The notes: a model not told the origin generated them from the sequence alone. 64,000 nt of DNA from Bacillota bacterium (GCA_028686075.1 JAQUCT010000004.1:1833-65832); one strand, 5' to 3'; shown: positions 34,065 through 59,245, counted from the stretch's first letter. A program made the numbers and translations.

Positions 34065-34088
34065 CACAAGAGAACCGTCCCTCTGTGT
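34065..34088 (-). repeat. small palindromic element with conserved loop (copy H1) in the purF-purM spacer
   Basis: ACACAAGAG-AACCGTCC-CTCTGTGT; loop shared with 39580, 45334 and 59223. Confidence 0.6.
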
Positions 34089-34092
34089 TCCT

Positions 34093-35469
34093 CTAAATAG
34101 GGTAGCTACCGCTAAAGCATGCGTGGCAGTATTCCCTGCCTTCCCCCACCGCTTCTATCAGGCCCTCAAGGCTCAGATACCCTAAGCTATCCGCTTCTAT
34201 CCTATCCCTTATTTCATCATCGCTTAAATTAGCTCCCACCAGATTCTCCCTGTTGGGGGTATCTATACCGAAATTGCAGGAGTGCTGCACCGGCGGCGAA
34301 CTCACCCGGAAATGCACCTCCACCGCACCGGCACCTTTTAGCATCCTTACCAGGTTGCGGCTTGTAGTACCCCTTACGATTGAATCGTCTACCATTATCA
34401 CTCTCTTGCCCTTTACCATATCCTCAAGCACATTAAGCTTTAACGCCACGCCAATCTCTCTCTGCCTTTGTTTAGGCTCAATGAATGTCCTGCCCACATA
34501 CCGGTTCTTAACAAGGCCCTCCACAAAGGGAATCCCCGAAGCCTCCGAATAGCCGATAGCCGCAGCGGTACCGGAATCCGGCACCGAAATAACTATATCC
34601 GCCTCCGCCGGATGCTCCTTAAAAAGATTGGCTCCTGCCCTACGACGGGACATGTATATATTCCTGCCCCCCATAACGCTGTCCGGCCTGCCAAAGTATA
34701 TGAATTCAAAAACGCACAGCTTATTTGTCTTAGGTCCCTTACAGAAAAAACTGTGCACCCCTTCTTTGTCAATCACCACCATCTCCCCCGGCTCAACATC
34801 CCTTATAAGCTTTGCTTCCACCGTATCAAAGGCACAGCTTTCGGAGGACAGCATGTATCGTCCGTCCTTTATGCCAAGGCTTAAGGGTCTTATACCGTTG
34901 GGGTCCCTCACCCCTATAAGCCGGTCGGAGGTCATTATTATAAGCGCGTAGGCCCCTCTTATGCAGTTCATTGTATCCTTTACAGCTTCAAGTATGTCAC
35001 CTTTGTCCTTCCGCGCCACCAGGTTAGCAATAACCTCACTGTCCACCGAGGTCTGGAATATTACACCCTCCTGCTCAAGCTGACGGCGCAGGTCCTCTGC
35101 GTTTACAAGGCTGCCGTTATGAGCCAGGGCAAGGCTACCGTTCCTGTATTTTACCACCAGAGGCTGCGCGTTTATCACATTGCTATCCCTCATGGTGGAA
35201 TACCTTACATGGCCGCAGGCAATACTCCCCTCCAGCTCCTCCAACAGGGCATCGTCAAACACCTCGAACACAAGACCCATCTGCTTGTGGTGCATTATAT
35301 TGCCTTCTTTTGCCACCGCTATTCCGGCACTTTGCTGTCCACGGTGCTGTAGCGCATACAGCCCGTAATAGGTTGTCCGGGCGAGGCCTTCTCCTTCTTT
35401 GCCGTAAACACCGAAAACACCGCACTCTTCCTTTGGCTTATCGCTTGCGACAGTTACTCCATTATACAC
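34093..35469 (-). CDS. purF: amidophosphoribosyltransferase (with propeptide before catalytic Cys)
   Basis: ...[11 protein letters not shown]-terminal nucleophile motif; 458 aa. Confidence 0.92.
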
Positions 35470-37652
35470 TCTATCGCCTCCCGCCAGTCGGTTTCCATAT
35501 CCTTCACCGCCATCTGGATTCCCCTTTGGCCGGCGATATCAATAATAAGTTCCTTACCCCTGACCCTTCCCAATACCGTGACGGGTATGCCAAACCGCGA
35601 AGCGGCATCCTTTACCCTCTCAAGGTCGCTTTGGCGGACTGTAATCACTATCCTGGACTGGCCCTCACCAAACAGCAGCAAATCCTCCCGACCGCAGCCC
35701 TCGAGCTCAACTTTGGCACCTATTTCTCCGGATATGCAGCTTTCCGCAAGGGCCACCGCGATACCGCCTTCGCTACAGTCGTGAGCGGATTTAACCGTCC
35801 CGCCCCTTATAAGTTCAAGGCAGCAGCCCTGCACCCTTTTTTCCCTGTCAAGGTCAAGCTTAGGGGCACTGCCCCGTTCCAGACCGTATACAACCTTCAA
35901 ATACTCGCTCCCACCTGCCTCCTGGGTGTTTTCCCCCAGAAGCACTATTACGTCCCCTTCTTCCTTAAAGCCCTGAGTTGTGATATGGCTGATATCTTCA
36001 ACAACTCCCACCATACCCACCACCGGGGTGGGGAATACCGCATCGGTGTCGGTCTCGTTGTAAAAGCTCACATTACCGCTTATAACCGGAGTATCCAGTG
36101 CCCGGCACGCTTCACTCATGCCGGAAACCGCCTGGCGGAACTGCCAAAACACGCCCGGCTTTTCCGGGTTGCCAAAGTTCAAACAATCGGTTGCCGCCAG
36201 GGGCTGTGCGCCGCTGCACACTAGGTTTCGTGCCGCCTCCGCCACCGCTATGGCTCCGCCTGTCGCCGGGTCTAAATAGCAGTACCTGCTGTTGCAGTCG
36301 GCAGTAAGGGCAATGGCCTTGTTTGTACCCCTAATTCTTACAACCGCCGCGTCGGAACCGGGGGTCACAGCTGTACAGGTCCGCACCATATAGTCAAACT
36401 GACGATACGCCCATTCCTTGCTGGCAATGTTGGGACTTTTTAATAAGCTAACAAGCACACCGTTCAGGTCATCGGGGACTTCCAGACCTCTTTCGTCCAA
36501 AACCCCCACCTGCTTCAGATAGGACGGCTCCTTATATTCCCTGTAATAGATCGGAGCGTCCTCCGCCAGCGACTTGGCGGGAACACTTCCCACAACTTCG
36601 TCCCCGTCCCTTATGGTTAGCATCCCATCATCGGTTACCCGTCCTATTACTGATGAATTGAGACCCCATTTTTTAAATATGCCGGTTACCTCCTCTTCCC
36701 GGCCCTTTTCCACTATCACAAGCATCCGCTCCTGGGATTCCGATATCATAACCTCCACCGGCACCATACCGGTTTCCCGCCTGGGAACCAGGCTTACGTC
36801 AATGTCCATACCGCTGCCGCCTCGGCTTGCGGTCTCGCTGGACGCGGAGGTAAGCCCCGCAGCACCCAGGTCCTGTACCCCTACCACGCAGCCGGTTTCG
36901 AACAGCTCAAGGCATGCCTCCAGCAACAGTTTTTCCAAAAAGGGATCCCCCACCTGCATCGGCGAACGTTTTTCCTCGGATTCTTTGTTCAGTTCCACCG
37001 ACGCAAAGCTAGCTCCCCCCATACCGTCCCGACCGGTTGAAGCACCCACTATCATTACCGCGTTGCCCGCCCCCGAGGCTGTGCCCCGCTTTATATCACC
37101 GTGACGGATTATTCCTACACACATAGCGTTAACCAGGGGATTGCCCCTGTAGCAGTCGTTAAAATACACCTCACCGCCCACGGTGGGAATTCCTATACAG
37201 TTGCCGTAGCCGCCAATTCCTGCTACCGCGTTTTCGAACAGGTACTTGGTCCTATCGCTTTCCAGTTCGCCAAACCTCAGCGAATTAAGAAGCGCGACCG
37301 GTCTTGCCCCCATTGTGAATATATCCCTAATAATACCCCCAGCACCAGTGGCAGCACCCTGGTAGGGCTCCACCGCCGATGGGTGGTTGTGACTTTCTAT
37401 CTTCATGACCACCGCCAGACCATCGCCTATATCAACTATGCCGGCGTTTTCGCCCGGACCCTGCAGCACCCTGTCGCCGGAGGTGGGAAACACCCTTAAA
37501 ACCTGTTTGGAGTTTTTGTAGCTGCAATGTTCCGACCACATTACACCGTACAGGTTTAGTTCCAGCCCATTTGGCTCCCTCCCCAGCATCTTCACTATTC
37601 GTTCGTATTCCTCGAAGGTAAGTCCCACTCTTTCATAGGGTTTTTTATCCAT
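35454..37652 (-). CDS. purL: phosphoribosylformylglycinamidine synthase II
   Basis: 732 aa, tandem AIRS/AIRS_C domains. Confidence 0.92.
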
Positions 37653-38352
37653 TCACAGCACCCCCCTTCAGGTAGTTAATAATGGACTTGAATATTACCG
37701 CTCCGTCCCTGCCCTCCAATATTTCTTCCATACACCTTTCCGGATGGGGCATCATACCTAATACGTTTCCCTCCCGGTTGCAAACGCCCGCAATGTTTTG
37801 CAAAGAACCATCGGGGTTTGACGCATCCGTCACCTCTCCGTCCCGGGCGCAGTACCTGAAAACTATCTGGTTGTTTTCCTCCATTCTCTTTAAGGTCTCA
37901 TCGCCCACGTAATAGTTACCGTCGCCGTGAGCTATGGGAATTCTGAGTATCTGCCCTTTGCCGCACAGGTTGGTAAAGGGAGTGCTTATACTTTCGGTCC
38001 GTATATATACATTTTCACAGATAAATTTCATATTGTTGTTTCGAAGGAACGCCCCGGGCAAAATGCCGGACTCGACCAGTACCTGAAATCCGTTGCTTAT
38101 GCCTATCACCGGTTTACCGCTTTCCACAAACTCCACAACCCTGTCCATTACCGGCGAAACCTTTGCAATGGCCCCGCCCCGGAGGTAGCTGCCGTAGGAG
38201 AAACCCCCCGGCAGTACTATACAGTCATAGGAACCTAAGTTTTTTGTCCTATGCCAGATGTACTCGGTGTCCTGGTCCAGCACATCTCTCAGGGCATTAT
38301 AACAGTCTATATCGCAGTTGGAACCCGGAAATACCACTACCCCGAATTTCAT
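37645..38352 (-). CDS. purQ: phosphoribosylformylglycinamidine synthase I (glutaminase)
   Basis: [14 protein letters not shown]...; class I GATase triad. Confidence 0.9.
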
Positions 38353-38603
38353 GGCTGTACCTCCAGTATGTCATAAGTGTAGTCCTCTATAACAGTATTG
38401 GCCAAAAGGGTATCGCACATATCCTTTACCCTTTTTTCAGCCTCTTTTGAGCTTTTGTCCGCAAGCTTAATCTCTATCAGCTTGCCCATACGTACATCCT
38501 TTACACCGTCGTATTCCATAGACAAAAGTGCTTCTTTAATTGCGTTGCCCTGGGGGTCGGCTATGCTCTTTTTTAGCGTAATGTAAACCTTTGCGTAAAA
38601 CAT
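38349..38603 (-). CDS. purS: FGAM synthase PurS subunit
   Basis: 84 aa; [19 protein letters not shown]. Confidence 0.88.
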
Positions 38604-38604
38604 G

Positions 38605-39093
38605 TTATATCCCTCCTATGATTCTGGCATCCTTTTCCGCTACCTTACTTGCCATCTTATCCCTGTATTCTTTTAGCTTTTCCGCCAGCTCCGGGTATTT
38701 TAACGAAAGCATCTGAACCGCCAGCAGTGCGGCGTTCTCACTTCCGTTTATACCAACGGTGGCCACCGGTATCCCGGCCGGCATCTGCACTATTGACAGA
38801 AGGGAATCCATCCCGTCCATTAAGGAGGATTTTATCGGTATACCAATAACCGGAACCAGTGTCATGGCTGCCAGCACTCCCGGAAGGTGGGCTGCCTTTC
38901 CGGCGGCCGCTATTATTACCTCTACCCCCGACTGCTGCGCTCCCTTTGCGAATTCCGCCGCCACATACGGTGTCCTGTGGGCGGAAATAACCCTTACTTC
39001 TCTTTGGACGTCAAACCGCTCAAGAGTTTCAATTGCCTTTTCCACAACCGGAAAGTCGGAATCACTTCCCATTACTATTGCAACCTTTGGCAT
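38605..39093 (-). CDS. purE: N5-CAIR mutase / AIR carboxylase catalytic subunit
   Basis: VAIVMGSDSD...; 162 aa; no purK anywhere in the window. Confidence 0.9.
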   Translation of the reverse strand: MPKVAIVMGSDSDFPVVEKAIETLERFDVQREVRVISAHRTPYVAAEFAKGAQQSGVEVIIAAAGKAAHLPGVLAAMTLVPVIGIPIKSSLMDGMDSLLSIVQMPAGIPVATVGINGSENAALLAVQMLSLKYPELAEKLKEYRDKMASKVAEKDARIIGGI

Positions 39094-39274
39094 AGCATTA
39101 ACTCCCTTCGAATATTTTTGGGCTTTGGGCCCCGCCCCTTTGTTTCACATCCCCTGAAATGGGCCGGGCCGGAAAAAAGATAAACCCCGCCGGAGTATAG
39201 GTGAAACCTCCGCAGGGTTTTGTTCACGGGGGGTACGGGAACCGTACGCAAATTTGCAAATGCAAATCCGCTTT

Positions 39275-39344
39275 CACCCATAGTCAAGCAATTTACGGTC
39301 ACTTGGTAGAAACTTGCGGGCCAATCCCCGCCATTATATGAGTG
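39275..39344 (-). promoter_or_regulatory. purine (guanine) riboswitch aptamer in the pur operon leader
   Basis: Minus strand CACTCATATAATGGCGGGGATTGGCCCGCAAGTTTCTACCAAGTGACCGTAAATTGCTTGACTATGGGTG is near-identical in architecture to the B. subtilis xpt G-box and carries the discriminator C. Confidence 0.85.
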
Positions 39345-39579
39345 AAACAAATTATTTGCTTTTCTTTCTTTTATATTAACAAAGGGGATTAGCAGTGTCA
39401 ATAGAAATGGCGAATAAATAGGTTAGAATCTGCGTGTTTGTATTGTGTGTTACGTATATTAGTAATATTTTTATATTTAATGTACGGGTTTTCGCAGGAG
39501 GGTAAGGCCAATGCCTGGTTTTACAGGTGCAGGAGGAATGTATCACAGTTATGGATGCCGTCACGGCAAATCCAAAAAA

Positions 39580-39625
39580 GACAGGAGAACCGTCCCCTTG
39601 TCTTGGAGAACCGTCCCCTTGTCTT
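39580..39625 (-). repeat. tandemly duplicated palindromic element (H4a/H4b) serving as the likely terminator downstream of the phosphoglycerate mutase gene
   Basis: AGACAGGAG-AACCGTCCCCTTGTCTTGGAG-AACCGTCCCCTTGTCT; on the minus strand H4a is followed by TTTTTT. Confidence 0.6.
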
Positions 39626-39683
39626 TCTTGTCCCCAACCCCGGAGGTGTTGAAACCATCTCCGGGGCTGGGGGACAAAAATAA

Positions 39684-40895: not shown

Positions 40896-41500
40896 ATTAA
40901 AACCCTCCCTGTTTTAGTAACCTTATATGCTGTTCTTCCTTCCAAACCCTCTATTGCTCCCTTAAACCCTTTCTCCAATCAACCCTGTTTAAACGGTATA
41001 GCTTGTGAAACTTCAACATTAAATCCGTTATCCGTATATTTTAAGGTCATCTAATCTTTCCTGTCATAGCATTACCGCCAACTCATTATTGTTATTATAC
41101 GATCCTACATAATAATAATACCATACCTTATAGCCCGCAACCGTATCCACGATACAACAATAGTAACCTATGACCTTTATCACTAAAGCTTTATTAGCTC
41201 CAAAAATACTATACTCATATAATACACGATATTTGCCGATACGTAAACGCTGCAATAGTGGAATAAAGCCCTAAGCATTCAAATATCGCCTCCAGGCGGA
41301 TATCCGGTTAGCCCCTCAATATTTTGTTTCATCCTAAGCTCTGGGCCTATCAAATAAAAGTAATTTCTTAACCTTGAAACTTTCTTTATTAGGAAGTACA
41401 ATAAAATTGTGCCAAAGAACGCTTCTAAGCTGCCGGCGGCATGCACAAAAAATGTCATACCATATAAGCTACCTGCATTTGTTAGCGAGGAGGCAAAGAA

Positions 41501-42949
41501 ATGGCAGATAATAGAGTTAAACGCGCCGCTTCATATATAAACTTAAGCGAGCGGGAGCTGTCAATAATAGTCCATTCCCTGTTTTCTGCCTGGATGCTGG
41601 CCTTCCTCTTTGAGGGGCAAATATTCTATTCCCTTGCCGGCTCTTTTGACCTAGACCCTGCCATAATGGTCTTCTGTGGAATTGCAGCTATATTTACCGG
41701 ACTGCTGCTATGCGGATTTTTTATCAAAACAAAGAAAGCGGCGCGACGCTTATTCTTGTGTTCTTATCCTATTTTCATAGCTGTTTCCGCTATCTTTTTC
41801 TTCCCGCCGTCTGCATTTTGGACCTTTGGAATGATGGTGGGCTCATTTTCGGCCGGAGGCTGTGTGGCGGCCTGGGGCTTTTATTTAAAGAGCAGCACAC
41901 CGAAAAACGAGCGTATCAAAACGGCTGCCGATATGCTTATCTTTTCCAATGTCCTGATGATTTTGCTCAATATGACAGCCATTCACCTGTCGCCCCGCAT
42001 GGGACTGGCCTCCTCCATGCTCCTGCTTTTGGGTGCCTTTTTATTTGCATTGCGGCTCCCCGCAGGTCATGAAAACGTTTCCCCCGTTTCATCCCCGCAG
42101 AAGAATAACACAATAAGCATCACGGGGCTGCTTGCCTTTCTGTGTCTTTTTATTGTAATTATCACCATCAACTCAGGGCTTATGTACCAGGTGATTAATC
42201 CTGCCTTTGCGCATCTGGAATGGCTTACAGGCTGGTACTGGGCGATTCCTTACATTGTTGCCCTTTTCGTCATGAGGAATTTACCCCGGAAAACAAACAG
42301 AACCTATATACTCTATGTGGCCATAGCTATGATAGGGCTTTCATTTATAGGTTTCATGACCCTTGACCGCACCGCCGCCGGCTATCTCGTGGTAAACACG
42401 CTGATGCTGGGGGCTTGCGGTGTGTACGACCTGTTCTGGTGGAGCATCCTTGGAGAGATGCTTGACTTCCATAATAATCCTGCAAAAATTCTCGGTATTG
42501 GCCTTTCCGCCAATGTGCTGGGAGTGCTGCTGGGCGGGATGCTCGGTAACGCCATCACTTCCGCGGATCCGTACAGTTCACACCCCACGCTGCTGGCACT
42601 TACCGTGGTTTGCGTAACACTTACCCTCCTACCACCTTTGCATAAGCGTTTATCCTTCCTGCTCAAAGAGCATGCCTATCTAGCGGCATTTTTCGAAATG
42701 CCTGTGCTGGAGAAAACCAGCCAGGTGGATCGTACCTTAAGGTCCGGGGGCCTTTCTAAACGGGAAAGCGAGGTCGCTTCTTTGCTGCTTCAGGGGAAAA
42801 CCTATCGGACCATTGCCGGTGAGCTTTTTATCAGCGAAAACACGGTGAAGTATTACGTAAAAAACATTTATTCCAAATTCAGCATACAAAGCCGCGCGGA
42901 GCTTATTGATATCGTACTGAAAAAAGAAAGTGCAGCCCCGTCGAAATAG
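41501..42949 (+). CDS. membrane-anchored LuxR-family transcriptional regulator (about 10 TM segments plus C-terminal LuxR HTH)
   Basis: C-terminus LSKRESEVASLLLQGKTYRTIAGELFISENTVKYYVKNIYSKFS; about 400 aa of hydrophobic segments before it; SD GAGGAGG. Confidence 0.8.
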   Translation: MADNRVKRAASYINLSERELSIIVHSLFSAWMLAFLFEGQIFYSLAGSFDLDPAIMVFCGIAAIFTGLLLCGFFIKTKKAARRLFLCSYPIFIAVSAIFFFPPSAFWTFGMMVGSFSAGGCVAAWGFYLKSSTPKNERIKTAADMLIFSNVLMILLNMTAIHLSPRMGLASSMLLLLGAFLFALRLPAGHENVSPVSSPQKNNTISITGLLAFLCLFIVIITINSGLMYQVINPAFAHLEWLTGWYWAIPYIVALFVMRNLPRKTNRTYILYVAIAMIGLSFIGFMTLDRTAAGYLVVNTLMLGACGVYDLFWWSILGEMLDFHNNPAKILGIGLSANVLGVLLGGMLGNAITSADPYSSHPTLLALTVVCVTLTLLPPLHKRLSFLLKEHAYLAAFFEMPVLEKTSQVDRTLRSGGLSKRESEVASLLLQGKTYRTIAGELFISENTVKYYVKNIYSKFSIQSRAELIDIVLKKESAAPSK

Positions 42950-42975
42950 TATATCCTATAGCCGTGTGATTTGAA

Positions 42976-43006
42976 GCCCCTACCCGAAAAAGGTAGGGGC
43001 TTATTT
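42976..43006 (+). terminator. rho-independent terminator after the LuxR-family gene
   Basis: GCCCCTACC-CGAAAAA-GGTAGGGGC + TTATTTG, immediately followed by a second hairpin AAACTACCCG-TTT-CGGGTAGTTT (43011-43033). Confidence 0.8.
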
Positions 43007-43113
43007 GAATAAACTACCCGTTTCGGGTAGTTTTAACTTTCTCTTATCATGCTAATATACAATTGACAATAGATTTTGCCAATCCAATTATAATGCGAAA
43101 GGAAGTGTTCTCC

Positions 43114-44205
43114 TTGAAGAAAAAACTCGGCATCATTCTGGCGCTGGTCATGCTGTTTTCTGTCATGACAGCGCTTCCCGCAGCGGCGGCCTTAACTTCC
43201 ATATCCGGCACGGTGCTCAATGACCAGCTAAGCTTTAAGATCGGCGGCAAAGCCGCTGTGCCGGTGGGGGACGATGGCACGCCTGTGCTGCCCATATCCT
43301 ATAACGGCACCACCTACTTGCCGGTGCGGGCCATGGGCTATCTGTTGGGGCTTGGCATCGACTGGGACGGCGCTACCAATACCGTGCTCATCACCAGCTC
43401 TACGACAAAAACAGCACCCAAAGCCACTGCAGCCGCCAAAACCAACAAATTGATACCCATTTCCGGGGCGGTGTTAAACAGCGACCTGAAATTTAAGCTG
43501 GACGGCAAAGCTGCTGTGCCGGTGGGGGACGACGGCACGCCTGTACTGCCCATATCCTATAATGGCACCACCTACCTGCCGGTGCGGGCCATGGGCTATC
43601 TGTTGGGGCTTGGCATCGACTGGGACGGCGGTACCAATACCGTGCTTATCACCAGCTCTGCAACAAAAGGGGCGCCCCCGGCCACCGGCGGCGGACCGGG
43701 CTGGTATTTCACGCGTTGGGAATATATTAAAGACCCTGGTGATACGGTGGATACAGGGGGGAAGGTAGGCAGGTTTGCAGGCGGGGACACATATACCGAC
43801 TACCTAGAGGGCAAGGGTGAAAAGAATGATTTCACCATAGTTACGGCACGGAAACTATCAGACGGTACTGTTGCCGCTTCCGGCCATGCAGTCACCACAT
43901 GGACTGACCCGCCTGAATATTTCGGCGCAAACGACCGGCCTACCGTTACCGTTAATAGGACAGCGGAATCCACATGGGGGATAAACGCCTTCTCTATTTC
44001 CTTTGATATGCACGATATTAACCCCGGGGGAGCAACAATGGGCAAAATCAACTTTGCATCGCCTGACGGGCAAACGCACGTACAGGCCTACAAGGGAACC
44101 ATGCAGATGCAAAAAGCAAAGACGGGTAAAGCCGGTGACAAGATGGCTGTCATTATGCATATGAACTGGTACGGCTTTAAGTATTACTATGAATGGCGGG
44201 ACTAG
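43114..44205 (+). CDS. secreted protein with two CuAO_N-like repeats and a C-terminal domain of unknown function
   Basis: Signal peptide MKKKLGIILALVMLFSVMTALPAAAA from a TTG start with SD AAAGGAAG (alternative ATG at 43093); 86-aa tandem repeat. Confidence 0.7.
   Translation: MKKKLGIILALVMLFSVMTALPAAAALTSISGTVLNDQLSFKIGGKAAVPVGDDGTPVLPISYNGTTYLPVRAMGYLLGLGIDWDGATNTVLITSSTTKTAPKATAAAKTNKLIPISGAVLNSDLKFKLDGKAAVPVGDDGTPVLPISYNGTTYLPVRAMGYLLGLGIDWDGGTNTVLITSSATKGAPPATGGGPGWYFTRWEYIKDPGDTVDTGGKVGRFAGGDTYTDYLEGKGEKNDFTIVTARKLSDGTVAASGHAVTTWTDPPEYFGANDRPTVTVNRTAESTWGINAFSISFDMHDINPGGATMGKINFASPDGQTHVQAYKGTMQMQKAKTGKAGDKMAVIMHMNWYGFKYYYEWRD
43246..43678 (+). repeat. intragenic 258-bp tandem duplication (two units, about 95% identical over the ~175-bp core)
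   Basis: GGCAAAGCCGCTGTGCCGGTGGGGGACGATGGCACGCCTGTGCTGCCCATATCCTATAACGGCACCACCTAC... recurs 258 bp later with a handful of substitutions. Confidence 0.85.
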
Positions 44206-44256
44206 GATACAAAGCTTTTAACCCAATATATCCAATGCGAAACGCCATTGCGAAAA

Positions 44257-44290
44257 GCCCCTACCCGAAAAAGGCGGGGGCTCTTTTTCG
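44257..44290 (+). terminator. rho-independent terminator after the secreted-protein gene (paralogous to the 42976 terminator)
   Basis: GCCCCTACCCGAAAAAGGCGGGGGC + TCTTTTTCG; the first 20 nt are identical to the 42974-42993 terminator. Confidence 0.75.
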
Positions 44291-44327
44291 CAGGTTACAC
44301 GATTGGGGCGTTTTTTCCCAAACATAG

Positions 44328-44510
44328 ACTGTCATTCTGTTATTGACGACAAAAATGCTTGACGGTAAAAGGGAGGCTTATGAAAGACTATGCTTTCTTG
44401 TTTGTCACTGTGAAGCGAAGTTGAAGAATCTGACTTTGTCATTCTGAACATAGTAAAGAATCTTGTGTTTTCAATAACTTAAAGACATTTAGCTGTCGCT
44501 CAGGATGACA
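44328..44510 (-). repeat. degenerate MITE/REP-like element copy R7 (no intact TIRs)
   Basis: GTCATTCTG x2, GAAGCGAAG, GACATTTAGCTGTCGCTCAGGATGACA. Confidence 0.6.
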
Positions 44511-44553
44511 AAAAGGGGCTTTTTCAGTGGCTTCGGTAAAAGGAGGAGTTTGT

Positions 44554-45084
44554 TTGAAGGCAATCAGACGAAGAAAAAATGCCTTCGCGGTTTCTACCGG
44601 AGTTGGCATCGTCCTCAGCCTTTTAATTTTCGCATACAGCTTACGGGCACCAAACATTCCAATACGGCTTTTACTGGCTGCCAGCATCCCGGTAAGCGTC
44701 TGGCTGTCTTTCTTTTGGATACGGGAACACAGAAGGCTGCAAACGGCACAGCTTATAGTTGAAAACCAGATTTTGCGCATCCCTACCGCTGTAATAAGCA
44801 GCGGGCATGGCGGTGCGGTAAAACCGGAAAACGCCGAAATCGTCGAAGTATTTGTTTCTTACTTTGGTATCCTATTGGGCTCAAAAGTTATCAAGTTCAA
44901 TCAAGACAACATCTTTTTGAAAGCCGTAGAGATTGGGTTGGATTTTATATCCCTATCCTATGGCACAGACAAATGGATGAGGAACATACGACTCCTGCGT
45001 ACCGTGACAAGCAGTGAGGAACTTGAAAACATTATAAAACAATTCCGGGATGAAACCGGCATTGTACCTGTGGTTATAAACTAG
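44554..45084 (+). CDS. hypothetical membrane protein (two N-terminal TM segments)
   Basis: TTG start 6 nt after SD AAAGGAGGA; the track ORF begins earlier, at 44527. Confidence 0.5.
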   Translation: MKAIRRRKNAFAVSTGVGIVLSLLIFAYSLRAPNIPIRLLLAASIPVSVWLSFFWIREHRRLQTAQLIVENQILRIPTAVISSGHGGAVKPENAEIVEVFVSYFGILLGSKVIKFNQDNIFLKAVEIGLDFISLSYGTDKWMRNIRLLRTVTSSEELENIIKQFRDETGIVPVVIN

Positions 45085-45104
45085 ATAAGAAAGGATGAGG
45101 TTTT

Positions 45105-45272
45105 ATGCGTGGATTCTCGCCTAGGATCAGTGACCCGGCCTGGCATAATGGGGAATTTCTCCTTAGAAACTCTTTTTTAGTTCTTGAAAGCAGCGAGGTT
45201 GTGGACGAATTCTCAGTTAAAGACCATACAAAAAGTGCGCAGCTACTGGAAGCTTTTAAAGCTTTCAAGTGA
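45105..45272 (+). CDS. possible 55-aa small ORF (not in the ORF track)
   Basis: ATG 5 nt after AGGATGAGG; followed by the hairpin TAGCGGGA-TATC-TCCCGCTA. Confidence 0.25.
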   Translation: MRGFSPRISDPAWHNGEFLLRNSFLVLESSEVVDEFSVKDHTKSAQLLEAFKAFK

Positions 45273-45333
45273 TTAGCGGGATATCTTCCCGCTACCCTGT
45301 ATCCGACAGTTCAAAGGGGAGGTGAGAGATTGG

Positions 45334-45358
45334 AACCAGAAGAACCGTCCCTCTGGTT
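45334..45358 (-). repeat. small palindromic element (H2) overlapping the stop codon of the GMP synthase gene
   Basis: AACCAGA-AGAACCGTCCC-TCTGGTT: perfect 7-bp stem, conserved loop. Confidence 0.65.
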
Positions 45359-46355
45359 ACTCCCACTCAATGGTACCCGGCGGTTTTGTGGTAATGTCGT
45401 ATACAACCCGGTTTATACCCTGCACGTTGTTTACTATGCCCGATGAAATCCTCTCCAGCACCTCATAGGGAATTTTAGCCCAGTCCGCCGTCATACCGTC
45501 GGAACTCGTAACCGCCCTTATGGCTAGCGCATGTTCATAGGTCCTTTCATCCTCCGTTACACCTACGGTTTTTACGTCTAAAAGCACCGCAAAATACTGC
45601 CATATTTCCCTGTCAAGGCCGGCATTTGCTATCTCATTCCTTAATATCGCATCCGCTTCTTTTAGTATTTCAAGCTTCTCACGGGTGACTTCCCCCATTA
45701 TCCTTATAGCAAGGCCTGGACCCGGGAAAGGCTGACGCCATACATGCTGCTCCGAGATGCCAAGGCTTACGCCCACCTTTCTTACCTCGTCCTTAAAAAG
45801 GTCCCTCAAGGGCTCTATTAGGGACAGTTTCATGTCCTCGGGCAGCCCACCTACATTGTGGTGGCTCTTTATCACCGTCGCCGCTTTGCTGCCGCTTTCT
45901 ATAACATCGGGATAGATGGTGCCCTGCACAAGGAAGTCCACCTTGCCCAGCTTGCCGGCCTCCTCCTCGAACACCCTTATGAATTCCCCGCCTATTATCT
46001 TTCTCTTAACCTCGGGATCGGTTACGCCCTCAAGCCGGCTTAAGAACCTGTCCCTTGCATCAACAGTTATAAGGTTAATATTGAAAATATCTCTGAACAC
46101 CCTTTCAACCTGTATCTCTTCGTCCTTTCGCAGGAGGCCGTGGTCTACAAATATACAGGTAAGCCGATCACCGATGGCCCTGTGTACCAGCACCGCCGCC
46201 ACCGAGGAATCCACTCCGCCGCTTAGGGCGCAAAGTACTCTCTTTTCCCCCACCTTATCCCGTATGCTTTTTATCTGGTCTTCTATAAATATTGTAATAT
46301 TCAGGTCCGGCCTGCAGCCGCACACGTCGAATACAAAATCCGATGGCTGTGACAT
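45357..46355 (-). CDS. guaA: GMP synthase, ATP-pyrophosphatase (synthetase) domain only; no glutamine amidotransferase domain
   Basis: 332 aa beginning at the linker; [10 protein letters not shown]-loop; only 13 bp separates it from guaB, so no room for a GATase domain. Confidence 0.75.
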
Positions 46356-46368: not shown

Positions 46369-47990
<1,622 letters not shown>

Positions 47991-50491: not shown

Positions 50492-50513
50492 TCACTCCTT
50501 TTATTGATTTTAC

Positions 50514-50798: not shown

Positions 50799-50841
50799 TC
50801 TTTACCCTCCTAACCTATATGTATAGTTTGGCTTCGTGTTG

Positions 50842-50868: not shown

Positions 50869-51016
50869 TTACAGTTATAATAATATTAAAAGCCGGCTGA
50901 GTAATCAAACTCAGTTCCGGCCAATAATCATCCAAAAATGTCGATTTTACCGGGTTACGGCAAAATATCCCTCCGTTTCTTTCCATATTCATTATTTGTG
51001 CCCGATTTCTATAGAT

Positions 51017-51898: not shown

Positions 51899-51993
51899 CG
51901 ATAAACCTCCAGATTATAGATAAGAAATCACAAATCACAGGTGCTAGGTGCTGGCTTCATGAAGCGATATAACCATTGGTCGCTGGCCGCTAT

Positions 51994-53013: not shown

Positions 53014-53183
53014 TTTAGACCCCTCTCCGCCTTAAAATTAAAATTGACAGGTGGTAATAAAATGCTGTATATACACCTGTCTTGTCTCATATATAATACC
53101 ACTCTCATCCCAAATGTCAAGCGGAAAGAAAATCTGTTTATTCTTAGCACAAGTAACAAAAGAAAGGAGGCGGTGCCCCCCTG

Positions 53184-53831
53184 TCATTTTTTTCTAACTA
53201 TTTTTATCCAACTTTTGTCAAAACCAATCGCTGATAATAATTGATCCTTATCAATGCTTGGTGGTTTCTTAATCTCTATTAGCAGGCAATCATTTGGTAC
53301 TTTTTCTATTATAGTAAACTGTGAACCATGTGGCTGCCAGGTAAAACAATGCTCTTGTAAGTTCTTGTTATAACCTTCTAAGTTCTTTCTATTATTCCAT
53401 TGCCAATAATATAACTCTTGGTCATATCTAATCGTATCAAACTCAAATACAGCTAATTCTTCTAAAGTATTTGATTTCAGTAAAACTACTGTACTGACAA
53501 ATTTATAGTGTTTCCTTACGGCCGAAACTCGTTCGTTCCAAATTGAAAGAACCTGTCCTCCTAAATTATTAGGATTAACTTCTGTAATCTTTGTCTCACC
53601 AAATGAATAAACAGGTGAATTTCTACCTGAAATAAGCCTAACTGTTTTCTCCCATTCTTTGCCCTCTAAACTTGGAACGCCTTTAGTTGCAAGAAGATAA
53701 ACTAACTCACGTCCTAATTTGTAAGCAAAATCAAAAGGAAAACGATTTAATTCGTATGGCGGCAAAACTTTATTCACAGTACGCAAACGAGGAGTATCTC
53801 TCTTAACCATATGTAAACGACCTCGTTCCAT
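53184..53831 (-). CDS. hypothetical protein in an AT-rich island; possibly an orphaned restriction endonuclease (its start lies 6 nt after the stop of the MTase remnant)
   Basis: 215-aa ORF with visibly lower GC and different codon usage than its neighbours; no recognisable motifs; alternative start at M8 with SD GAGGT. Confidence 0.45.
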   Translation of the reverse strand: MERGRLHMVKRDTPRLRTVNKVLPPYELNRFPFDFAYKLGRELVYLLATKGVPSLEGKEWEKTVRLISGRNSPVYSFGETKITEVNPNNLGGQVLSIWNERVSAVRKHYKFVSTVVLLKSNTLEELAVFEFDTIRYDQELYYWQWNNRKNLEGYNKNLQEHCFTWQPHGSQFTIIEKVPNDCLLIEIKKPPSIDKDQLLSAIGFDKSWIKIVRKK

Positions 53832-53837
53832 AAGTAA

Positions 53838-54005
53838 TTAGAGATTACCTATACGCTCCATTCCAGAACTGTTTTCATTTCCTAAAATTATTGGCAGAAA
53901 AGATTCTAACACTGCACGAACTACATTTACCGGTACGGAATTACCAGCTTGTTTTCTTATTTGAGTATCCGGAACTATTAACAAAGGGGGGGCATCACCC
54001 CCCAT
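53838..54005 (-). pseudogene. C-terminal remnant (about 48 aa) of a C5 DNA cytosine methyltransferase
   Basis: Translation ...LLIVPDTQIRKQAGNSVPVNVVRAVLESF... matches C5-MTase motif X (..KQ.GNSV.V.V..A..). The upstream part is absent; the 5' end is a G7/C6 homopolymer hairpin 17 bp from the nitrilase stop. Confidence 0.6.
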
Positions 54006-54022
54006 ATCTCAATCCACTTCCT

Positions 54023-54805
54023 TTATAGAACCCTGTCCTTTAACGCAGTGAAAGTGCGACGGCTCTTTTTCACCTCTTCCAGGTCAATGTTGGCCCAGAC
54101 TACTGTCTCTTTGTCTCCTCCCGAAGCCACGGCGATTCCCCAGGGGTCCACTACCATGCTGTGCCCTCCGAAGGTTACTCCTCCATGGCTTCCCGCGCAG
54201 TTGCAGGAAATAAGGTAACACTGGTTCTCAATCGCCCTTGCCTTGTTGAAAACAGACCAGTGGTCTAATCGGTTAATGGGCCATGCGGCCGGCACCAGAA
54301 AACCTTCCGCCCCTTTGTCCACCATGGCACGGTACAATTCCGGGAACCTCAAGTCGTAGCAGGTGGTTATTCCCCATATGCCAAACTCTGTTCTAACCAC
54401 CGTAATGTCCTTTCCCGGCGTCAGCACCTCGGTCTCCCTGGATTTGTAACCGAACAGGTGAATCTTCCTGTACCGGGCCACTATGTTCCCTTCGGGGTCT
54501 ATAAGCAGCGAGGTATTGAATAGGTCACTGCCCTCCCGCTCCACAAAGCTTCCGGTCAGAATGTAACATCCCAGTTTGGCGGCCAGGGGAGCAAAGGCGG
54601 AATAGGTACGGCCCTTCAGTTCTTCGCTCTCTTCCTCATAGTTGTCAAAATTGGAAAACCCAGTACCCCATATCTCGGGCAGCAACACCAGCTGTAGCTG
54701 TTTATCGTCCCGGTGCATGCCCTCAAGAATGTCCGTTGCGTGGGCAATCCGTTCATCCTTTGTTTTCTCTTCGTTAACCTCCAACTGCAGCACTGCCACA
54801 TTCAT
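54023..54805 (-). CDS. carbon-nitrogen hydrolase (nitrilase superfamily)
   Basis: 260 aa; catalytic E (LPEIW), K (YRKIHLF) and C (TCYDLRFPE) triad context. Confidence 0.8.
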   Translation of the reverse strand: MNVAVLQLEVNEEKTKDERIAHATDILEGMHRDDKQLQLVLLPEIWGTGFSNFDNYEEESEELKGRTYSAFAPLAAKLGCYILTGSFVEREGSDLFNTSLLIDPEGNIVARYRKIHLFGYKSRETEVLTPGKDITVVRTEFGIWGITTCYDLRFPELYRAMVDKGAEGFLVPAAWPINRLDHWSVFNKARAIENQCYLISCNCAGSHGGVTFGGHSMVVDPWGIAVASGGDKETVVWANIDLEEVKKSRRTFTALKDRVL

Positions 54806-55085
54806 TTTTCAATCCTCCATTCCTCGCCCTTTCCCCATATAATACCATCCCGATGAAGAATGTCAAGTAAAATGAATTGACCCGGTACCGTATAAACTGT
54901 CATTATTTTGTACTGTATTCAATATATTTTAACAAACCGGGTGAACATCTACAATTATAATACGCTGCCCCTAAGCTGTATATTTGGACATTGGTATTGT
55001 GTATATTAATTGTGTATATTAATAATGTAGGCAAAATGGTTTTAGCGCAAGAAAACCGCACCCTGCTTAATTAACCAGGAGGGAG

Positions 55086-55865
55086 GTGGTAAATATTTTC
55101 AGGGTAGACCTAAACAGTGACCTAGGAGAAAGCTTTGGAAGCTACGTGCTTGGAATGGATGAACAGGTAATAAAACACGTCACATCGGTAAACGTTGCCT
55201 GCGGATGGCATGGAGGGGACCCGCTCGTTATGGACAGAACGGTAAAAACGGCCCTCCGGGAGGGTGCGGCCATAGGAGCACATCCCGGTTTCCCGGACCT
55301 TTTGGGTTTTGGAAGAAGAAACCTGGCCGCCACACCGGAAGAGGTAAAGGCATACGTAAAGTACCAGTTGGGAGCCCTTATGGCCTTTGCAAAGGCAAGC
55401 GGGACAGCGATTCAGCATGTAAAGGTCCACGGAGCACTGTACAATATGGCGGCAAAGGACTTCAAACTGGCAGCGGCCATAGCCGGGGCAATCCATGAAG
55501 TGGACAGGGACATAATTCTGATGGGCCTTGCCAACAGCGAGATGATTAATGCCGGAAGGGAAATGAGACTTAAAACAGCTAATGAAGTGTTTGCCGACAG
55601 GGCCTACAACCCCGATGGGACCCTGGTGTCAAGAAGACTTCCGGACGCGATGATTCACGATATCGAACTTGCCCTGTCCAGGGTCATAGGTATGGTAAAG
55701 GAAGGAAAGGTAAGGGCTGTGAACGGTCAGGACATCGAAATAAAGGCAGACTCAATCTGCGTTCACGGCGACAACCCGGAAGCGGTGGAGTTTACAAGAA
55801 AAATAAGGGCCAGATTAGAAGAAGAGGGCGTAGAAGTAACCGCCGTTTCTAATTTTATTAAATAA
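55086..55865 (+). CDS. pxpA: 5-oxoprolinase subunit A (LamB/YcsF family)
   Basis: [12 protein letters not shown]..., 259 aa; GTG start. Confidence 0.85.
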
Positions 55866-55881
55866 AATGGAGGGATTTTGA

Positions 55882-57099
55882 ATGGGTTCCAACAAAAAAG
55901 ATTCGGACCTTAAGAAAAAGGCCAGCGTTTTGCTGGGGGCAGCCTTCATTATGGCTACATCGGCAATAGGGCCGGGATTTTTGACCCAGACTGCCGCCTT
56001 CACCGAGCAGTATAAAGCAGACTTTGCATTTGTTATACTGTTTTCAATCCTTCTTGCCCTGGGTGCTCAATTAAACGTATGGAGGGTTATAGGTGTTTCG
56101 GGGTTAAGGGGCCAGGACATTGCAAACAAAGTACTGCCCGGTCTTGGTTATTTTTTGGCCATTCTTGTGGCCTTGGGCGGACTGGCCTTTAATATAGGAA
56201 ACATAGGCGGTGCTTCCCTGGGCATAAACGCACTTCTGGGGATTGACATGAATGTAGCGGCAGTTATAAGCGGTATTATAGGTGTCCTGATATTCCTTTC
56301 AAAGGATGCGGGCCCCGTGATGGATAAGTTCACCAAGATTCTTGGAATGCTTATGATAATAGTAGTAGGCTATGTTACCTTCACATCAAAACCGCCTGTG
56401 GGAGAAGCCCTTTTAAGAAGCATCTCCCCCGAAAACCCGGGAGCACTGCTGTTCCCCACCATTACGCTGCTGGGCGGAACGGTCGGGGGCTACATAACCT
56501 TTGCCGGAGGCCACAGGCTTATTGACGCCGGCATAGCCGGAAAAGAAAACCTTGACCAAATCACCAGGAGTTCACTAACGGGAATCCTCGTTGCAACCAT
56601 CATGCGTGTCCTGTTGTTCCTGGCCATATTGGGGGTTGTCAGCAAGGGCCTGGCCCTTGACCCCACAAACCCGGCGGCTTCGGCTTTCCAGCATGGTGCC
56701 GGAACAATAGGTTACAAATTCTTCGGCATAGTTTTATGGTCGGCGGGTATCACCTCGGTAATAGGAGCAGCCTTTACCTCGGTATCCTTCTTAAAGACGC
56801 TGCATCCGCTTATCGGTAAATACGAAAAATATGTCATATGCAGCTTTATAATAGCTTCAACGCTTATAATGGTCCTGGTGGGCAGCCCGGCCAAGCTGCT
56901 TATCCTTGCAGGTTCCCTCAACGGGCTTATTCTGCCTGTAACCCTGGGAACCATGCTACTGGCTTCCAAAAGGAAGGATATTATAGGCGATTACAAACAT
57001 CCTACCTGGCTTTTATTGTTCGGAATAGTTATCGTACTGGTGGCCGGTTATTCGGGGATACTGTCGCTTAGGAATATGGCAAACTTGATACCTAGATAA
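55882..57099 (+). CDS. ycsG: NRAMP-like membrane transporter, YcsG family
   Basis: 405 aa polytopic; position between pxpA and pxpB as in the B. subtilis ycsFGI-kipIA operon. Confidence 0.6.
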   Translation: MGSNKKDSDLKKKASVLLGAAFIMATSAIGPGFLTQTAAFTEQYKADFAFVILFSILLALGAQLNVWRVIGVSGLRGQDIANKVLPGLGYFLAILVALGGLAFNIGNIGGASLGINALLGIDMNVAAVISGIIGVLIFLSKDAGPVMDKFTKILGMLMIIVVGYVTFTSKPPVGEALLRSISPENPGALLFPTITLLGGTVGGYITFAGGHRLIDAGIAGKENLDQITRSSLTGILVATIMRVLLFLAILGVVSKGLALDPTNPAASAFQHGAGTIGYKFFGIVLWSAGITSVIGAAFTSVSFLKTLHPLIGKYEKYVICSFIIASTLIMVLVGSPAKLLILAGSLNGLILPVTLGTMLLASKRKDIIGDYKHPTWLLLFGIVIVLVAGYSGILSLRNMANLIPR

Positions 57100-57261
57100 A
57101 TATATATAACGCACTTGAACGTTACATCCCCTAGCATGTCATCCTGAGCGGTAGCGAAGGATCTTGCTATAGCTAAATGTCTATCTCCAATAAGATTCTT
57201 CGGGCTTCGCCCTCAGAATGACGGACAAAAGAATGTAATATTATTAATGCGTTGTATATAG
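57100..57261 (+). repeat. MITE/REP-like element copy R9 (forward, intact TIRs) inside the pxp operon
   Basis: TATATATAACGCACTTGAACGTTACATCCCCTAGCATGTCATCCTGAGCGGTAGCGAAGGATC...GATTCTTCGGGCTTCGCCCTCAGAATGAC...GAATGTAATATTATTAATGCGTTGTATATA. Confidence 0.9.
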
Positions 57262-57365
57262 ATTTCTTTGGTTAAACATACAGGCATCCGGAAACAGTGG
57301 AGCTAACCAACCGTACGGCCGGATGCCTTAACGCCAAACAAAGAAAAAGTCAGGGGGGAGGCATA

Positions 57366-58127
57366 TTGTATAAGCAGACAAAATATCTTGTGACCGGAGA
57401 TAGGGCACTGGTAATGGAGTTTGGGAACTCTATCTCGGAGGAAATAAACAGCAGGATAAGGTCTGTAGGAATAGCCATAGAAAAAAGTGGGATTAACGGG
57501 ATAACCGAAATAGTACCAACCTACAGGTCTCTTATGGTACATTACGACCCTATGGTTATTGAGTACGACGTCCTTTTGGAAAAGTTGGCGACTCTAGAAG
57601 AGCAGCTTGAAAGTGTAGAACTTCCGTCACCCTGTACCTATGAAATCCCAACGCTTTACGGTGGCGAATTCGGGCCGGACATGGAAAACGTGGCGAAACA
57701 CAATGAGCTGACGAAGGAACAAGTTATTGAGATTCACACCTCAAGGGACTACCTCATTTATATGCTGGGATTTACGCCGGGGTTTCCCTATCTGGGAGGA
57801 ATGGACGAAAGAATCGCCACACCTAGGCTTAAAATCCCAAGGACAAGAATTGACGCAGGCTCGGTTGGGATTGCCTCGGCCCAAACCGGTGTATATCCAA
57901 TAGATAGTCCCGGAGGCTGGCAGCTTATTGGCAGGACCCCCATAAAGCTGTATGACCCCTACAGGGAAAACCCCATTCTGCTTAAGGCGGGAAATTATAT
58001 CCGGTTCATAAGGATTGACCGGGAAGAATACGACAGAATAAAGGAAGAAGTGGCCAAAGGAACGTACCGGTATATAATCCGCAACGGGGGGGGGCGGACA
58101 ACAGAATGGGAAATGTTAAGATTATAA
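57366..58127 (+). CDS. pxpB: 5-oxoprolinase subunit B (KipI/allophanate hydrolase subunit 1 family)
   Basis: TTG start after SD GGGGGAGG; cyclophilin-like KipI domain. Confidence 0.8.
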   Translation: MYKQTKYLVTGDRALVMEFGNSISEEINSRIRSVGIAIEKSGINGITEIVPTYRSLMVHYDPMVIEYDVLLEKLATLEEQLESVELPSPCTYEIPTLYGGEFGPDMENVAKHNELTKEQVIEIHTSRDYLIYMLGFTPGFPYLGGMDERIATPRLKIPRTRIDAGSVGIASAQTGVYPIDSPGGWQLIGRTPIKLYDPYRENPILLKAGNYIRFIRIDREEYDRIKEEVAKGTYRYIIRNGGGRTTEWEMLRL

Positions 58128-59137
58128 ACCCGGGCCTTATAACTCTGGTTGAGGACAGCGGAAGGTACGGGTACCAGCAATACGGAGTTCCCGTCTCCGG
58201 CGTGATGGACAGCTATTCCTACAGATTGGGCAATATACTGGTCGGCAATAAAGAAGGGGCGGCGGTTCTGGAGGCAGCCATGATGGGCCCAACCATTGAG
58301 TTTTCCGACCAAATGGTCATTGCCATAACCGGCGGTAATCTGTCCCCCACTCTAAACGGCTCCGCTATACCCATGTGGCAGAGCATCCTTGTAAATAAAG
58401 GAGACCGTCTTATCTTTACTGGTTTAAGAGCGGGGTGCAGAAGCTATATCGCATTCTCCGGTGGGATAGACGTACCCGAAGTTATGGGCAGTAAATCCAC
58501 TTATACAAGGGGAAGGATAGGAGGATACAACGGAAGGGCACTAAAGAGCGGGGACCTACTCGGAGTTAGGCACCCCGGAGAGGACCCGGGACGGCTTAGC
58601 GGCATAAAGGTGCCTGACGAGTATATTCCGGATTATCCGAATACACTGGAATTAAGGGTAATAATAGGCCCCCAGGACGACCATTTTACCTTAGAAGGCA
58701 TGCAAGCCTTTTTGTCGGAGCAATATGAGGTAACCAGCGAATGTGACAGGATGGGATATAGGTTAAAGGGCAAAAAGATTGAACACGTTAAGAGCGGAGA
58801 CATTATTTCGGATGGAATCGCAATGGGGGCGGTCCAGGTGCCGGGCCACGGACAGCCAATAATAATGCTTGCCGACCGCCAGACAACCGGCGGGTACACC
58901 AAGATTGCCAACGTAATCTCCGTCGACCTGCCCAAAATAGCCCAGGCAAAACCCGGGGACAGGATAAAATTTGTAAAGGTGACGGTACGTAAGGCTCAGC
59001 AGATGCTCCGTGAAATGGAGGATAAAATAGCGGCCGTCAAAAAGGCCTGTGTACCCTGGAAGGTAGTCACTACAAGGCTTTTAACGCTTAGAATTGACGG
59101 AAAATGTTACAATGTAAAAGTGGAAGAAATCAAATAA
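58106..59137 (+). CDS. pxpC: 5-oxoprolinase subunit C (KipA/allophanate hydrolase subunit 2 family)
   Basis: 343 aa; MGNVKIINPGLITLVEDSGR... Confidence 0.85.
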   Translation: MGNVKIINPGLITLVEDSGRYGYQQYGVPVSGVMDSYSYRLGNILVGNKEGAAVLEAAMMGPTIEFSDQMVIAITGGNLSPTLNGSAIPMWQSILVNKGDRLIFTGLRAGCRSYIAFSGGIDVPEVMGSKSTYTRGRIGGYNGRALKSGDLLGVRHPGEDPGRLSGIKVPDEYIPDYPNTLELRVIIGPQDDHFTLEGMQAFLSEQYEVTSECDRMGYRLKGKKIEHVKSGDIISDGIAMGAVQVPGHGQPIIMLADRQTTGGYTKIANVISVDLPKIAQAKPGDRIKFVKVTVRKAQQMLREMEDKIAAVKKACVPWKVVTTRLLTLRIDGKCYNVKVEEIK

Positions 59138-59182
59138 TAGGCCGCACAATAAAAGGCCCTTTAGTATCTTTATGTGCATAAT

Positions 59183-59216
59183 TTAGGGCAGACCCGTAGG
59201 TCTGCCCTAAATTTCC
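59183..59216 (+). terminator. rho-independent terminator after pxpC (12-bp perfect stem)
   Basis: TTAGGGCAGACC-CGTA-GGTCTGCCCTAA + ATTTCCTTTT. Confidence 0.8.
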
Positions 59217-59222
59217 TTTTAT

Positions 59223-59245
59223 GGACAAAGAACCGTCCTCTGTCC
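59223..59245 (-). repeat. small palindromic element (H3) 10 bp downstream of the gdhA stop
   Basis: GGACAAAG-AACCGTCC-TCTGTCC. Confidence 0.6.

Follow-up and report, generated by a model that had tools for sequence, protein, structure and literature searches.

The stretch analysed here, a 64,000-nucleotide segment of a Bacillota genome (GCA_028686075.1, JAQUCT010000004.1:1833-65832; hereafter the window), has a G+C content of 48.5% and carries the genes purF, purM, apgM, guaA and gdhA, all confirmed by Pfam. Adjoining these genes are copies of a short hairpin with a conserved tip and a variable stem, which an initial annotation had described as terminator-like. In all, four hairpin units in the window are complete, one tandem unit is truncated, and a number of remnants consist of arms alone (Table 1); all five copies run in the sense of the upstream gene. 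The GC skew is negative along the whole plus strand, so the minus strand, which carries most of the genes, has leading-strand sequence. Read on the minus strand, the tip is the 11-nt sequence GGGACGGTTCT.

The recurrence of the motif, as first reported, is real. The exact 10-mer GGGACGGTTC occurs four times, on the minus strand only (34072, 39587, 39608 and 45342), compared with a chance expectation of about 0.1 for a random 10-mer in the 128 kb of both strands. When one mismatch was allowed, 14 matches were found, against 4.1 ± 1.9 in shuffled sequences, and none of 100 shuffles reached 14. A covariance model trained on 128 copies from other genomes scored the four full hairpins at 28–41 bits (E 1e-7 to 1e-12). 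The outer stems differ among the window copies yet remain complementary, also as originally stated.

The site downstream of apgM (39580-39625) consists of AAGACAAGGGGACGGTTCTCC twice in tandem, with the right arm and a run of six T residues on the second unit only. The copy at 39580-39604 is the only one of the five with a T tract, and the sole copy picked up by a scan for terminator-like structures. The hairpin after gdhA (59223-59245) sits upstream of an ordinary bidirectional terminator. Within the arm-only cluster the 10-mer ACAAGGGGAC occurs three times, the same exact 10-mer being present in the apgM tandem pair, and the cluster gave weak covariance-model matches on both strands (E about 0.05); the related copies annotated at 11733-11790 are copies of the arm, from which the tip is absent. 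Doublet-type arrangements in the window are limited to the one tandem pair and one arm-only palindrome. Neither of two proposed weaker relatives belongs to the family: the site near 25530 (25519-25529) has no flanking complementarity and is probably a chance match, while the hairpin GTACGGTTCCCGTAC (39251-39265) is part of the purine-riboswitch leader, its position conserved in relatives where the loop is different. Flanking complementarity was also missing at 8304-8313, and the uncertain candidate at 53150-53190 folded no better than shuffled sequences.

To place these copies in a wider setting, species-representative genomes were scanned with CARRGGGACGGTTCTYYTG, which gave at least 120 loci; we estimate about 70 chance matches to this pattern in the whole collection. 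Among the matches listed, carriers were found in Bacillota, namely Clostridia (Syntrophomonas, Pelotomaculum, Lachnospiraceae, Oscillospiraceae, Acutalibacteraceae), Bacilli (Rossellomorea, Neobacillus, Fredinandcohnia) and Negativicutes (Sporomusa, Anaerospora), as well as in Coriobacteriia, Bacteroidales/Prevotella and Atribacterota. Those loci were re-scanned with the 9-mer GGACGGTTC alone, yielding 272 usable copies, and the counts of context, arrangement and folding given below come from these loci. Nearly all of the 272 copies lie between complementary arms, which resemble one another in any one genome but not from one genome to the next (for example GAAGCA, GACACA, TGTCAA, AACCA and GTCCTCAA). 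The same tip is shared across phyla with genome-specific, covarying stems. As a control, the core 9-mer was absent from 948 kb of unrelated metagenome loci, chosen as PurL homologues of at most 62% identity and too distant for comparison of orthologous sites. Viral contigs gave ten loci, roughly the chance level by our estimate; several were true hairpin copies, and no link to phages emerged.

The unit is a hairpin of 25–35 nt whose tip, RGGGACGGTTCT, hardly varies among genomes and phyla, while the outer stem varies provided that pairing is kept. When 128 copies, mostly one per locus, were aligned without gaps, 87% of the cells of the 13-bp helix were paired, and the five outer pairs each occurred as four to six pair types, double changes being common. 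None of 500 shuffles reached the observed covariation score, and sliding the partner columns halved it (0.40 vs at most 0.20); the outer stem positions carry no bias from the search pattern. No conserved positions were found outside −9 to +9 in the copies compared. The initial annotation had seen a conserved loop of about 10 nt. Its conservation stands, but the loop is probably not open: in the predicted fold, GGA and TTC pair around a CGG triloop. G.T (in RNA, G.U) wobbles flank one G-C pair in this fold, so the fold is better on the G-rich strand than on its complement. RNA parameters gave −12.5 kcal/mol for the G-rich strand and −7.8 kcal/mol for the complement, and the former was the better in 256 of 272 copies.

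The copies are concentrated between genes. By counts that rest on crude open reading frame (ORF) calls, 74% of the cores are intergenic, compared with 16% of bases; 54 copies lie in convergent gaps and 13 in divergent gaps, and the upstream stop codon is a median of 35 nt away. A T-rich tail (at least six T in the next 9 nt) follows only 25 of 260 copies. The label ‘terminator-like’ is therefore not borne out, and the fuller description given with it, a maintained structured element with a conserved tip that is not a generic terminator, is correct. Neighbouring copies were head-to-head (plus then minus) in 51 cases, in the reverse order (minus then plus) in 2 and in tandem in 35. Arrays include truncated units, which break off at the end of the left arm or of GGGGAC, or a few bases past GGTTC, and arm-only units flank full copies in other genomes. 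The junctions between tandem units are heterogeneous, falling 3–6 nt past GGTTC, and no cleavage site could be deduced from them. Single copies between co-directional genes were sense in 29 cases and antisense in 19, which is not a significant difference, indicating that orientation is not dictated by transcription.

Turnover was followed in syntenic relatives found through GuaA homologues. The sequence directly after the guaA stop codon differs from one relative to the next (Table 1), and the gdhA and apgM copies are absent in two of them (L221 and L217); the gdhA copy is kept in six near-identical strains. These differences at orthologous sites show that, over the time of genus-level divergence, copies arise, disappear or are replaced.

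Several other features of the guaA-apgM region were noted. The interval between the two genes is about 4.4 kb in the window (40900-45330) and about 120 nt in L217 (6966-7088), and the hairpin at 45333-45359 forms one edge of the extra segment. The window guaA (45357-46355) encodes only the 332-aa ATP-pyrophosphatase part, without the GATase domain; homologues at 77–85% identity are either 512 aa or 321–332 aa long. In L221 (11540-12430), a partial second guaA 3′ end (GMP_synt_C, 11622-12374) lies between two hairpin clusters, which suggests an element-associated duplication. Between the apgM stop codon and the tandem units of the window there is a long, nearly perfect hairpin, TTTGTCCCCCAGCCCCGGAG...CTCCGGGGTTGGGGACAA (39625-39680), and L217 has a different hairpin at this place.

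The hairpins are associated with one gene. Inverted copies flank an intact gene of a single transposase clade in 11 of 11 loci, of which eight were selected by protein similarity alone and three by the motif, and two flanked remnants of the gene were also found (Table 1). The three motif-selected loci emerged from clustering the ORFs of 120 such loci (among the matches listed) as a cluster of 248–266-aa proteins with a plus copy on the left and a minus copy on the right; the largest cluster, of ABC-transporter ATPases, was a size artefact. These three proteins match Pfam Y1_Tnp at 59–65 bits (cut-off 23), and the NCBIfam model for REP-associated tyrosine transposases (RAYTs) scored 78.8 bits where the IS200 model scored 19.9. 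Homologues number thousands and bear the JGI name ‘REP element-mobilizing transposase RayT’. Seven of them, which share 50–77% identity with the L080 protein or about 71% with the L041 protein, were all flanked likewise. The G-rich hairpin lies 50–70 nt before the start codon and its reverse complement 7–40 nt past the stop. Each genome has stems of its own in these flanking hairpins and an unchanged tip, apart from a variant one base shorter, GGGACGTTCT, in one Desulfotomaculum clade (L229/L230). At the latter loci (2380-3420) the transposase gene has a TetR-PPDK_N gene pair on either side, and the two pairs look duplicated.

An alignment of 14 members of this clade showed the conserved motifs NHVHLL (HUH), GHVFQDR and RY[IV]HxNP (with the catalytic Tyr) and a C-terminal helix-turn-helix (HTH), for which the Pfam matches, HTH_23 and HTH_29, were weak. 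In a profile search the best PDB match was E. coli TnpA-REP (4ER8, E 2e-4); a single-sequence search of PDB gave no match. Few homologues were found on plasmids (13 of 72,556 records) or in phages (1 of 50,697). One 3.8-Mb metagenome-assembled genome (MAG) carries two paralogues that are only 54% identical, and no tnpB partner was seen among the neighbouring called genes.

A homologue of 33% identity is present in the complete 2.63-Mb replicon of Acetoanaerobium noterae (CP154629), which PLSDB lists as a plasmid, and it is flanked by hairpins in the same way. The transposase gene was found at one place only in this replicon by tblastn. The surrounding 40 kb (L240, CP154629 401884-442633) contain 14 hairpin copies, mostly in 107-nt doublets that include the 3′ flank of the RAYT gene and lie between unrelated genes within 20 kb of it. 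This is as expected if the doublets derive from the flanks of the gene.

Since the hairpins flank one RAYT-type gene in related genomes, they are best read as miniature mobile DNA and not as special terminators. Specifically, we propose, with a probability of about 0.78, that they are REP/REPIN-type palindromes maintained by a cognate RAYT-like Y1 (HUH) transposase of the long, HTH-bearing kind (TIRYT, subclass 2.1-like). A mobile mini-palindrome was among the options offered by the initial annotation, and it gains support from the flanking of the gene in all 11 loci, from the doublets and arrays, and from turnover at orthologous sites. We infer that the window's own genome also carries such a gene.

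The mechanism we envisage is modelled by analogy on E. coli TnpA-REP and IS608 TnpA, and would involve binding, cleavage and mobilisation of the hairpin by the enzyme. The hairpin would fold in single-stranded DNA, most easily on the G-rich strand owing to the G.T wobbles; in the window this strand has leading-strand sequence and so is the lagging-strand template. The enzyme would read the fixed tip, and perhaps the wobble geometry too, and would then cut and rejoin DNA nearby, which would give rise to further copies, to doublets in head-to-head orientation, to tandem arrays and to truncated units. Within a genome, one or a few stem variants would be amplified, while the tip would co-evolve with a conserved protein, so that stems would become genome-specific and the tip would not. 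Because copies settle just downstream of genes, many would be transcribed. Transcribed copies may stabilise or end transcripts as a secondary effect, and the copy at 39580-39604, with its six T residues, looks like a terminator.

The comparison system is that of REP/BIME (REPIN) sequences and RAYT (TnpA-REP) in E. coli and Pseudomonas (Nunvar 2010; Bertels and Rainey 2011, PMC3116915; Ton-Hoang 2012; Messing 2012, PDB 4ER8). Both families consist of short extragenic palindromes, mostly downstream of genes, that form inverted doublets and clusters and are gained and lost between relatives; in both, a Y1/HUH gene flanked by inverted copies (a ‘REPtron’) is present in single or low copy and is rare on plasmids. 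There are also differences. The conserved part here is the hairpin tip, with one sequence shared among phyla; the protein is larger by about 100 aa and has a C-terminal HTH; and the hosts are mainly Bacillota rather than Proteobacteria.

A number of observations weigh against this interpretation. Canonical REPs are described as species-specific, have a conserved GT[AG]G tetranucleotide 0–2 nt 5′ of the hairpin foot and border their RAYT gene as inverted copies (PMC6006769); the present family lacks the foot tag, with neither GTAG nor GTGG visible at the hairpin feet of the listed copies and the conserved bases at the tip instead. The three motif-locus proteins score 68.2, 75.4 and 78.8 bits against the NCBIfam RAYT model (REP_Tyr_transpos, NF047646), just under its cut-off of 80. 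With DNA parameters the hairpins have only modest stability, about −4 to −5 kcal/mol, and the asymmetry between strands is small (−4.8 vs −4.2, the G-rich strand being better in 214 of 272 copies). There is no RAYT gene within the 64-kb window, whose copies could be relics. Two distant homologues, from Sporomusa termitida and Collinsella, have no hairpin. In A. noterae, no copies were present in five other 50-kb samples of the replicon (L242-L246), and this clustering near the gene means that genome-wide dispersal is not universal. Finally, an association of gene and hairpin is not mobilisation.

The TIRYTs are among the closest systems described. Subclass 2.1 (TnpA-Y1) has been equated with the TIRYTs of Di Nocera 2013 (Quentin 2018, PMC6006769), and both probably correspond to the RAYT ‘Group 1’ of Bertels 2017 (PMC5581495). 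The present proteins, assigned to subclass 2.1 by its described features, share with it a long Y1 protein (about 240–260 aa), the HTH tail and the NHVH, FQ and Y[IV]HxNP motifs (PMC6006769, Table 1), and the gene is flanked at fixed distances by inverted G-rich repeats, as in TIRYTs. TIRYT genes are flanked by inverted repeats that carry GGGGWSAS (PMC3733652). The tip sequence GGGGACGG matches this consensus at seven of eight positions, and the arm-only copies in the window read GGGGACAG. The 31%-identical homologue on the S. termitida plasmid pSPTER (L241 19900-21000) is flanked by inverted GGGGTCAGGCC, without the hairpin tip, and its flank carries GGGGTCAG, an exact GGGGWSAS match. Taken together, these sequences make the family look like a hairpin-forming, multi-copy version of the TIRYT repeat; unlike the repeats reported for TIRYTs, it forms a true hairpin whose tip carries the motif, and it is dispersed in many copies, with doublets and arrays.

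In previous work on this class, automatic and manual searches gave no REP-like sequences for subclass 2.1 (PMC6006769); Group 1 RAYTs were reported in Clostridia, with flanking 16-mers that were only moderately frequent (PMC5581495); and a later preprint described Group 1 as co-opted single genes (10.1101/2021.07.10.451892). We found no paper that describes the family or its invariant tip in the open-access text searched, and a full-text search for the motif returned only primers and unrelated matches. More tentatively, at somewhat less than even odds, we suggest that many Bacillota, and some Coriobacteriia, Bacteroidales and Atribacterota, harbour REPIN-like populations sustained by the HTH-bearing RAYT class (TIRYT, subclass 2.1, ‘Group 1’). 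The code would be the invariant 11-nt tip common to these phyla together with a freely variable stem, a fixed-tip, free-stem mode of single-stranded-DNA recognition that appears to be undescribed.

Could the hairpins be primarily RNA elements of 3′ untranslated regions, such as exonuclease stabilisers, weak terminators or sites for an RNA-binding protein, with an incidental link to the transposase? The position of copies just past stop codons fits this idea, as do the far better folding of the G-rich strand as RNA, with its conserved G.U pairs, and, in the window, the one copy with a T tract and the sense orientation of all five. The hairpin at a gene 3′ end is likewise shared with intrinsic (Rho-independent) terminators. 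However, about 90% of the copies lack the T tract of such terminators, the tip sequence is fixed, and copies occur in both orientations and in tandem. The near balance of sense and antisense single copies, and the antisense copy that makes up half of each doublet, speak against an RNA loop read by a protein or RNase as the primary role, which the initial annotation had also considered. Presence, absence and stem replacement at orthologous sites and truncated arm-only units weigh against it as well, and a host RNA signal would not be expected to flank a Y1 transposase gene in 11 of 11 loci. At the gathering score, the Rfam search that had been suggested as a check found no family at these sites, either in the window or among 10 element-rich loci, and a permissive search (E up to 10) gave only chance matches to microRNA models. 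We therefore consider a primary RNA function improbable; a secondary RNA effect is likely and is compatible with the REP/REPIN-type explanation.

Alternatively, the gene and its two hairpins may constitute an autonomous insertion sequence (IS) of the IS200/IS605 type, the solo hairpins and doublets being MITE- or PATE-like deletion derivatives, that is, ordinary selfish elements. IS608, ISDra2 and their palindrome-associated derivatives share with the present system the use of Y1/HUH chemistry on single-stranded DNA. Elements of the IS200/IS605 family recognise imperfect hairpins in a strand-specific manner and prefer the lagging-strand template, and their ends lie in direct orientation, on one strand. 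In favour of such an element are the Pfam Y1_Tnp match, the fixed distances of the hairpins from the gene ends, the A. noterae doublets that carry the 3′ flank of the gene and cluster near it, and the spread across phyla, which suggests horizontal transfer. Against it, the ends are inverted in every locus and the repeats far outnumber the gene, which is present once in the A. noterae replicon and as divergent paralogues in the MAG, unlike multi-copy identical ISs. The gene is also nearly absent from plasmids and phages, is not seen with tnpB among its called neighbours, and scores far higher with the RAYT than with the IS200 model. An autonomous element of this type is thus an unlikely account.

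Chance recurrence of a short word beside unrelated terminator hairpins, to which the shortness of the motif and the two chance or unrelated ‘weaker relatives’ might point, is already refuted by the four exact 10-mers on one strand, the shuffled one-mismatch counts, covariance-model E values down to 1e-12 and the hundreds of copies of the same anatomy in other genomes. Other candidates were rejected: a CsrA GGA-loop site, a PurR PurBox, a tRNA T-loop, a tmRNA/tRNA-Ala acceptor mimic (with G.U at the third pair), rRNA complementarity and the nick loop of a rolling-circle origin each explain neither the doublets, the truncated units nor the flanked transposase gene.

The remaining features of the window are included in Table 1. 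Besides the hairpins there is a larger repeat family, centred on TGTCATCCTGAGCG...GCGAAGGATC and bordered by AT-rich sequence, which is presumably the ‘first repeat family’ of the initial annotation. Beside the arm-only remnants of the hairpin, the ORF at 10789-11397 has a borderline Pfam match to DarT (22.9 bits, cut-off 22.5).

Table 1. Hairpin copies, sequences at orthologous sites, associated gene loci and other features. Positions are those of the window unless a locus is named; bits and E values refer to the covariance model.
Feature	Position or locus	Strand	Remarks
Complete hairpin unit AACACAGAGGGACGGTTCTCTTGTGTT	34063-34089	minus	purF-purM spacer; 40.7 bits, E 8e-13; folds as a 10-11 bp hairpin
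Complete hairpin unit GACAAGGGGACGGTTCTCCTGTC, then T6 (39574-39579, minus)	39580-39604	minus	3′ of apgM; 38.8 bits
Tandem 21-nt unit AAGACAAGGGGACGGTTCTCC: left arm and tip, without right arm	39605-39625	minus	100% identical to next unit
Complete hairpin unit TAACCAGAGGGACGGTTCTTCTGGTTC	45333-45359	minus	Left arm includes guaA stop codon (TAA, then CCAGAGGGACGGTTCTTCTGGTT); 39.2 bits
Hairpin unit GGACAGAGGACGGTTCTTTGTCC, tip one G shorter	59223-59245	minus	10 nt past gdhA stop; 28.1 bits, E 9e-8
Arm-only cluster: GACAAGGGGACAG once on plus, twice on minus strand, and shorter fragments	11700-11800	both	14-bp palindrome; no GGTTCT tip
Possible degenerate copy TGACAGGGGGG...TTTTGTTA, different tip, uncertain	53150-53190	minus	18.6 bits, E 5e-4
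Sequence directly after guaA stop	window		TAA, then CCAGAGGGACGGTTCTTCTGG
Sequence directly after guaA stop	L217		TAA, then AATCAGGGGGACGGTTCCTCTGG; changed stem
Sequence directly after guaA stop	L221		Three tandem copies, stem GAAAGCAAGG; another copy past partial duplicate of gene end
Sequence directly after guaA stop	L219, L220		No copy
Transposase gene loci selected by motif	L038, L041, L080		Atribacterota, Acutalibacteraceae and Syntrophomonadaceae, respectively
Flanked remnants of transposase gene	L015, L061
Repeat family TGTCATCCTGAGCG...GCGAAGGATC	2309-2453, 6243-6466, 9582-9771, 15020-15191, 24199-24250, 28685-28831, 44483-44524, 47874-47958, 57120-57263, 62426-62504
Direct repeat, 229 nt	43199-43427 and 43457-43685		86% identity; within ORF 43063-44205
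Purine riboswitch	39261-39361		Upstream of purE
Six-tRNA gene cluster	2624-3138

REP/RAYT systems are well studied mainly in Proteobacteria, where the repeat is species-specific and tagged at its foot. The hairpins described here are probably of that known kind, REP/REPIN-RAYT in its TIRYT branch, and the new part appears to be a hairpin tip that is invariant across phyla. One tip common to distant phyla on a drifting stem separates the part that the enzyme would read from the part that merely pairs, and this fixed-tip rule is directly testable with oligonucleotides. Acetoanaerobium noterae, Rossellomorea vietnamensis and Sporomusa malonica offer cultured models. For the annotation of the window, the sites should be regarded as repeat copies and not as dedicated regulatory signals of purM, apgM, guaA and gdhA. 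If the interpretation is correct, many MAG assembly breaks and spurious small ORFs would be explained, the largest RAYT class would gain a substrate, and REPIN biology would extend to Gram-positive bacteria and gut anaerobes.

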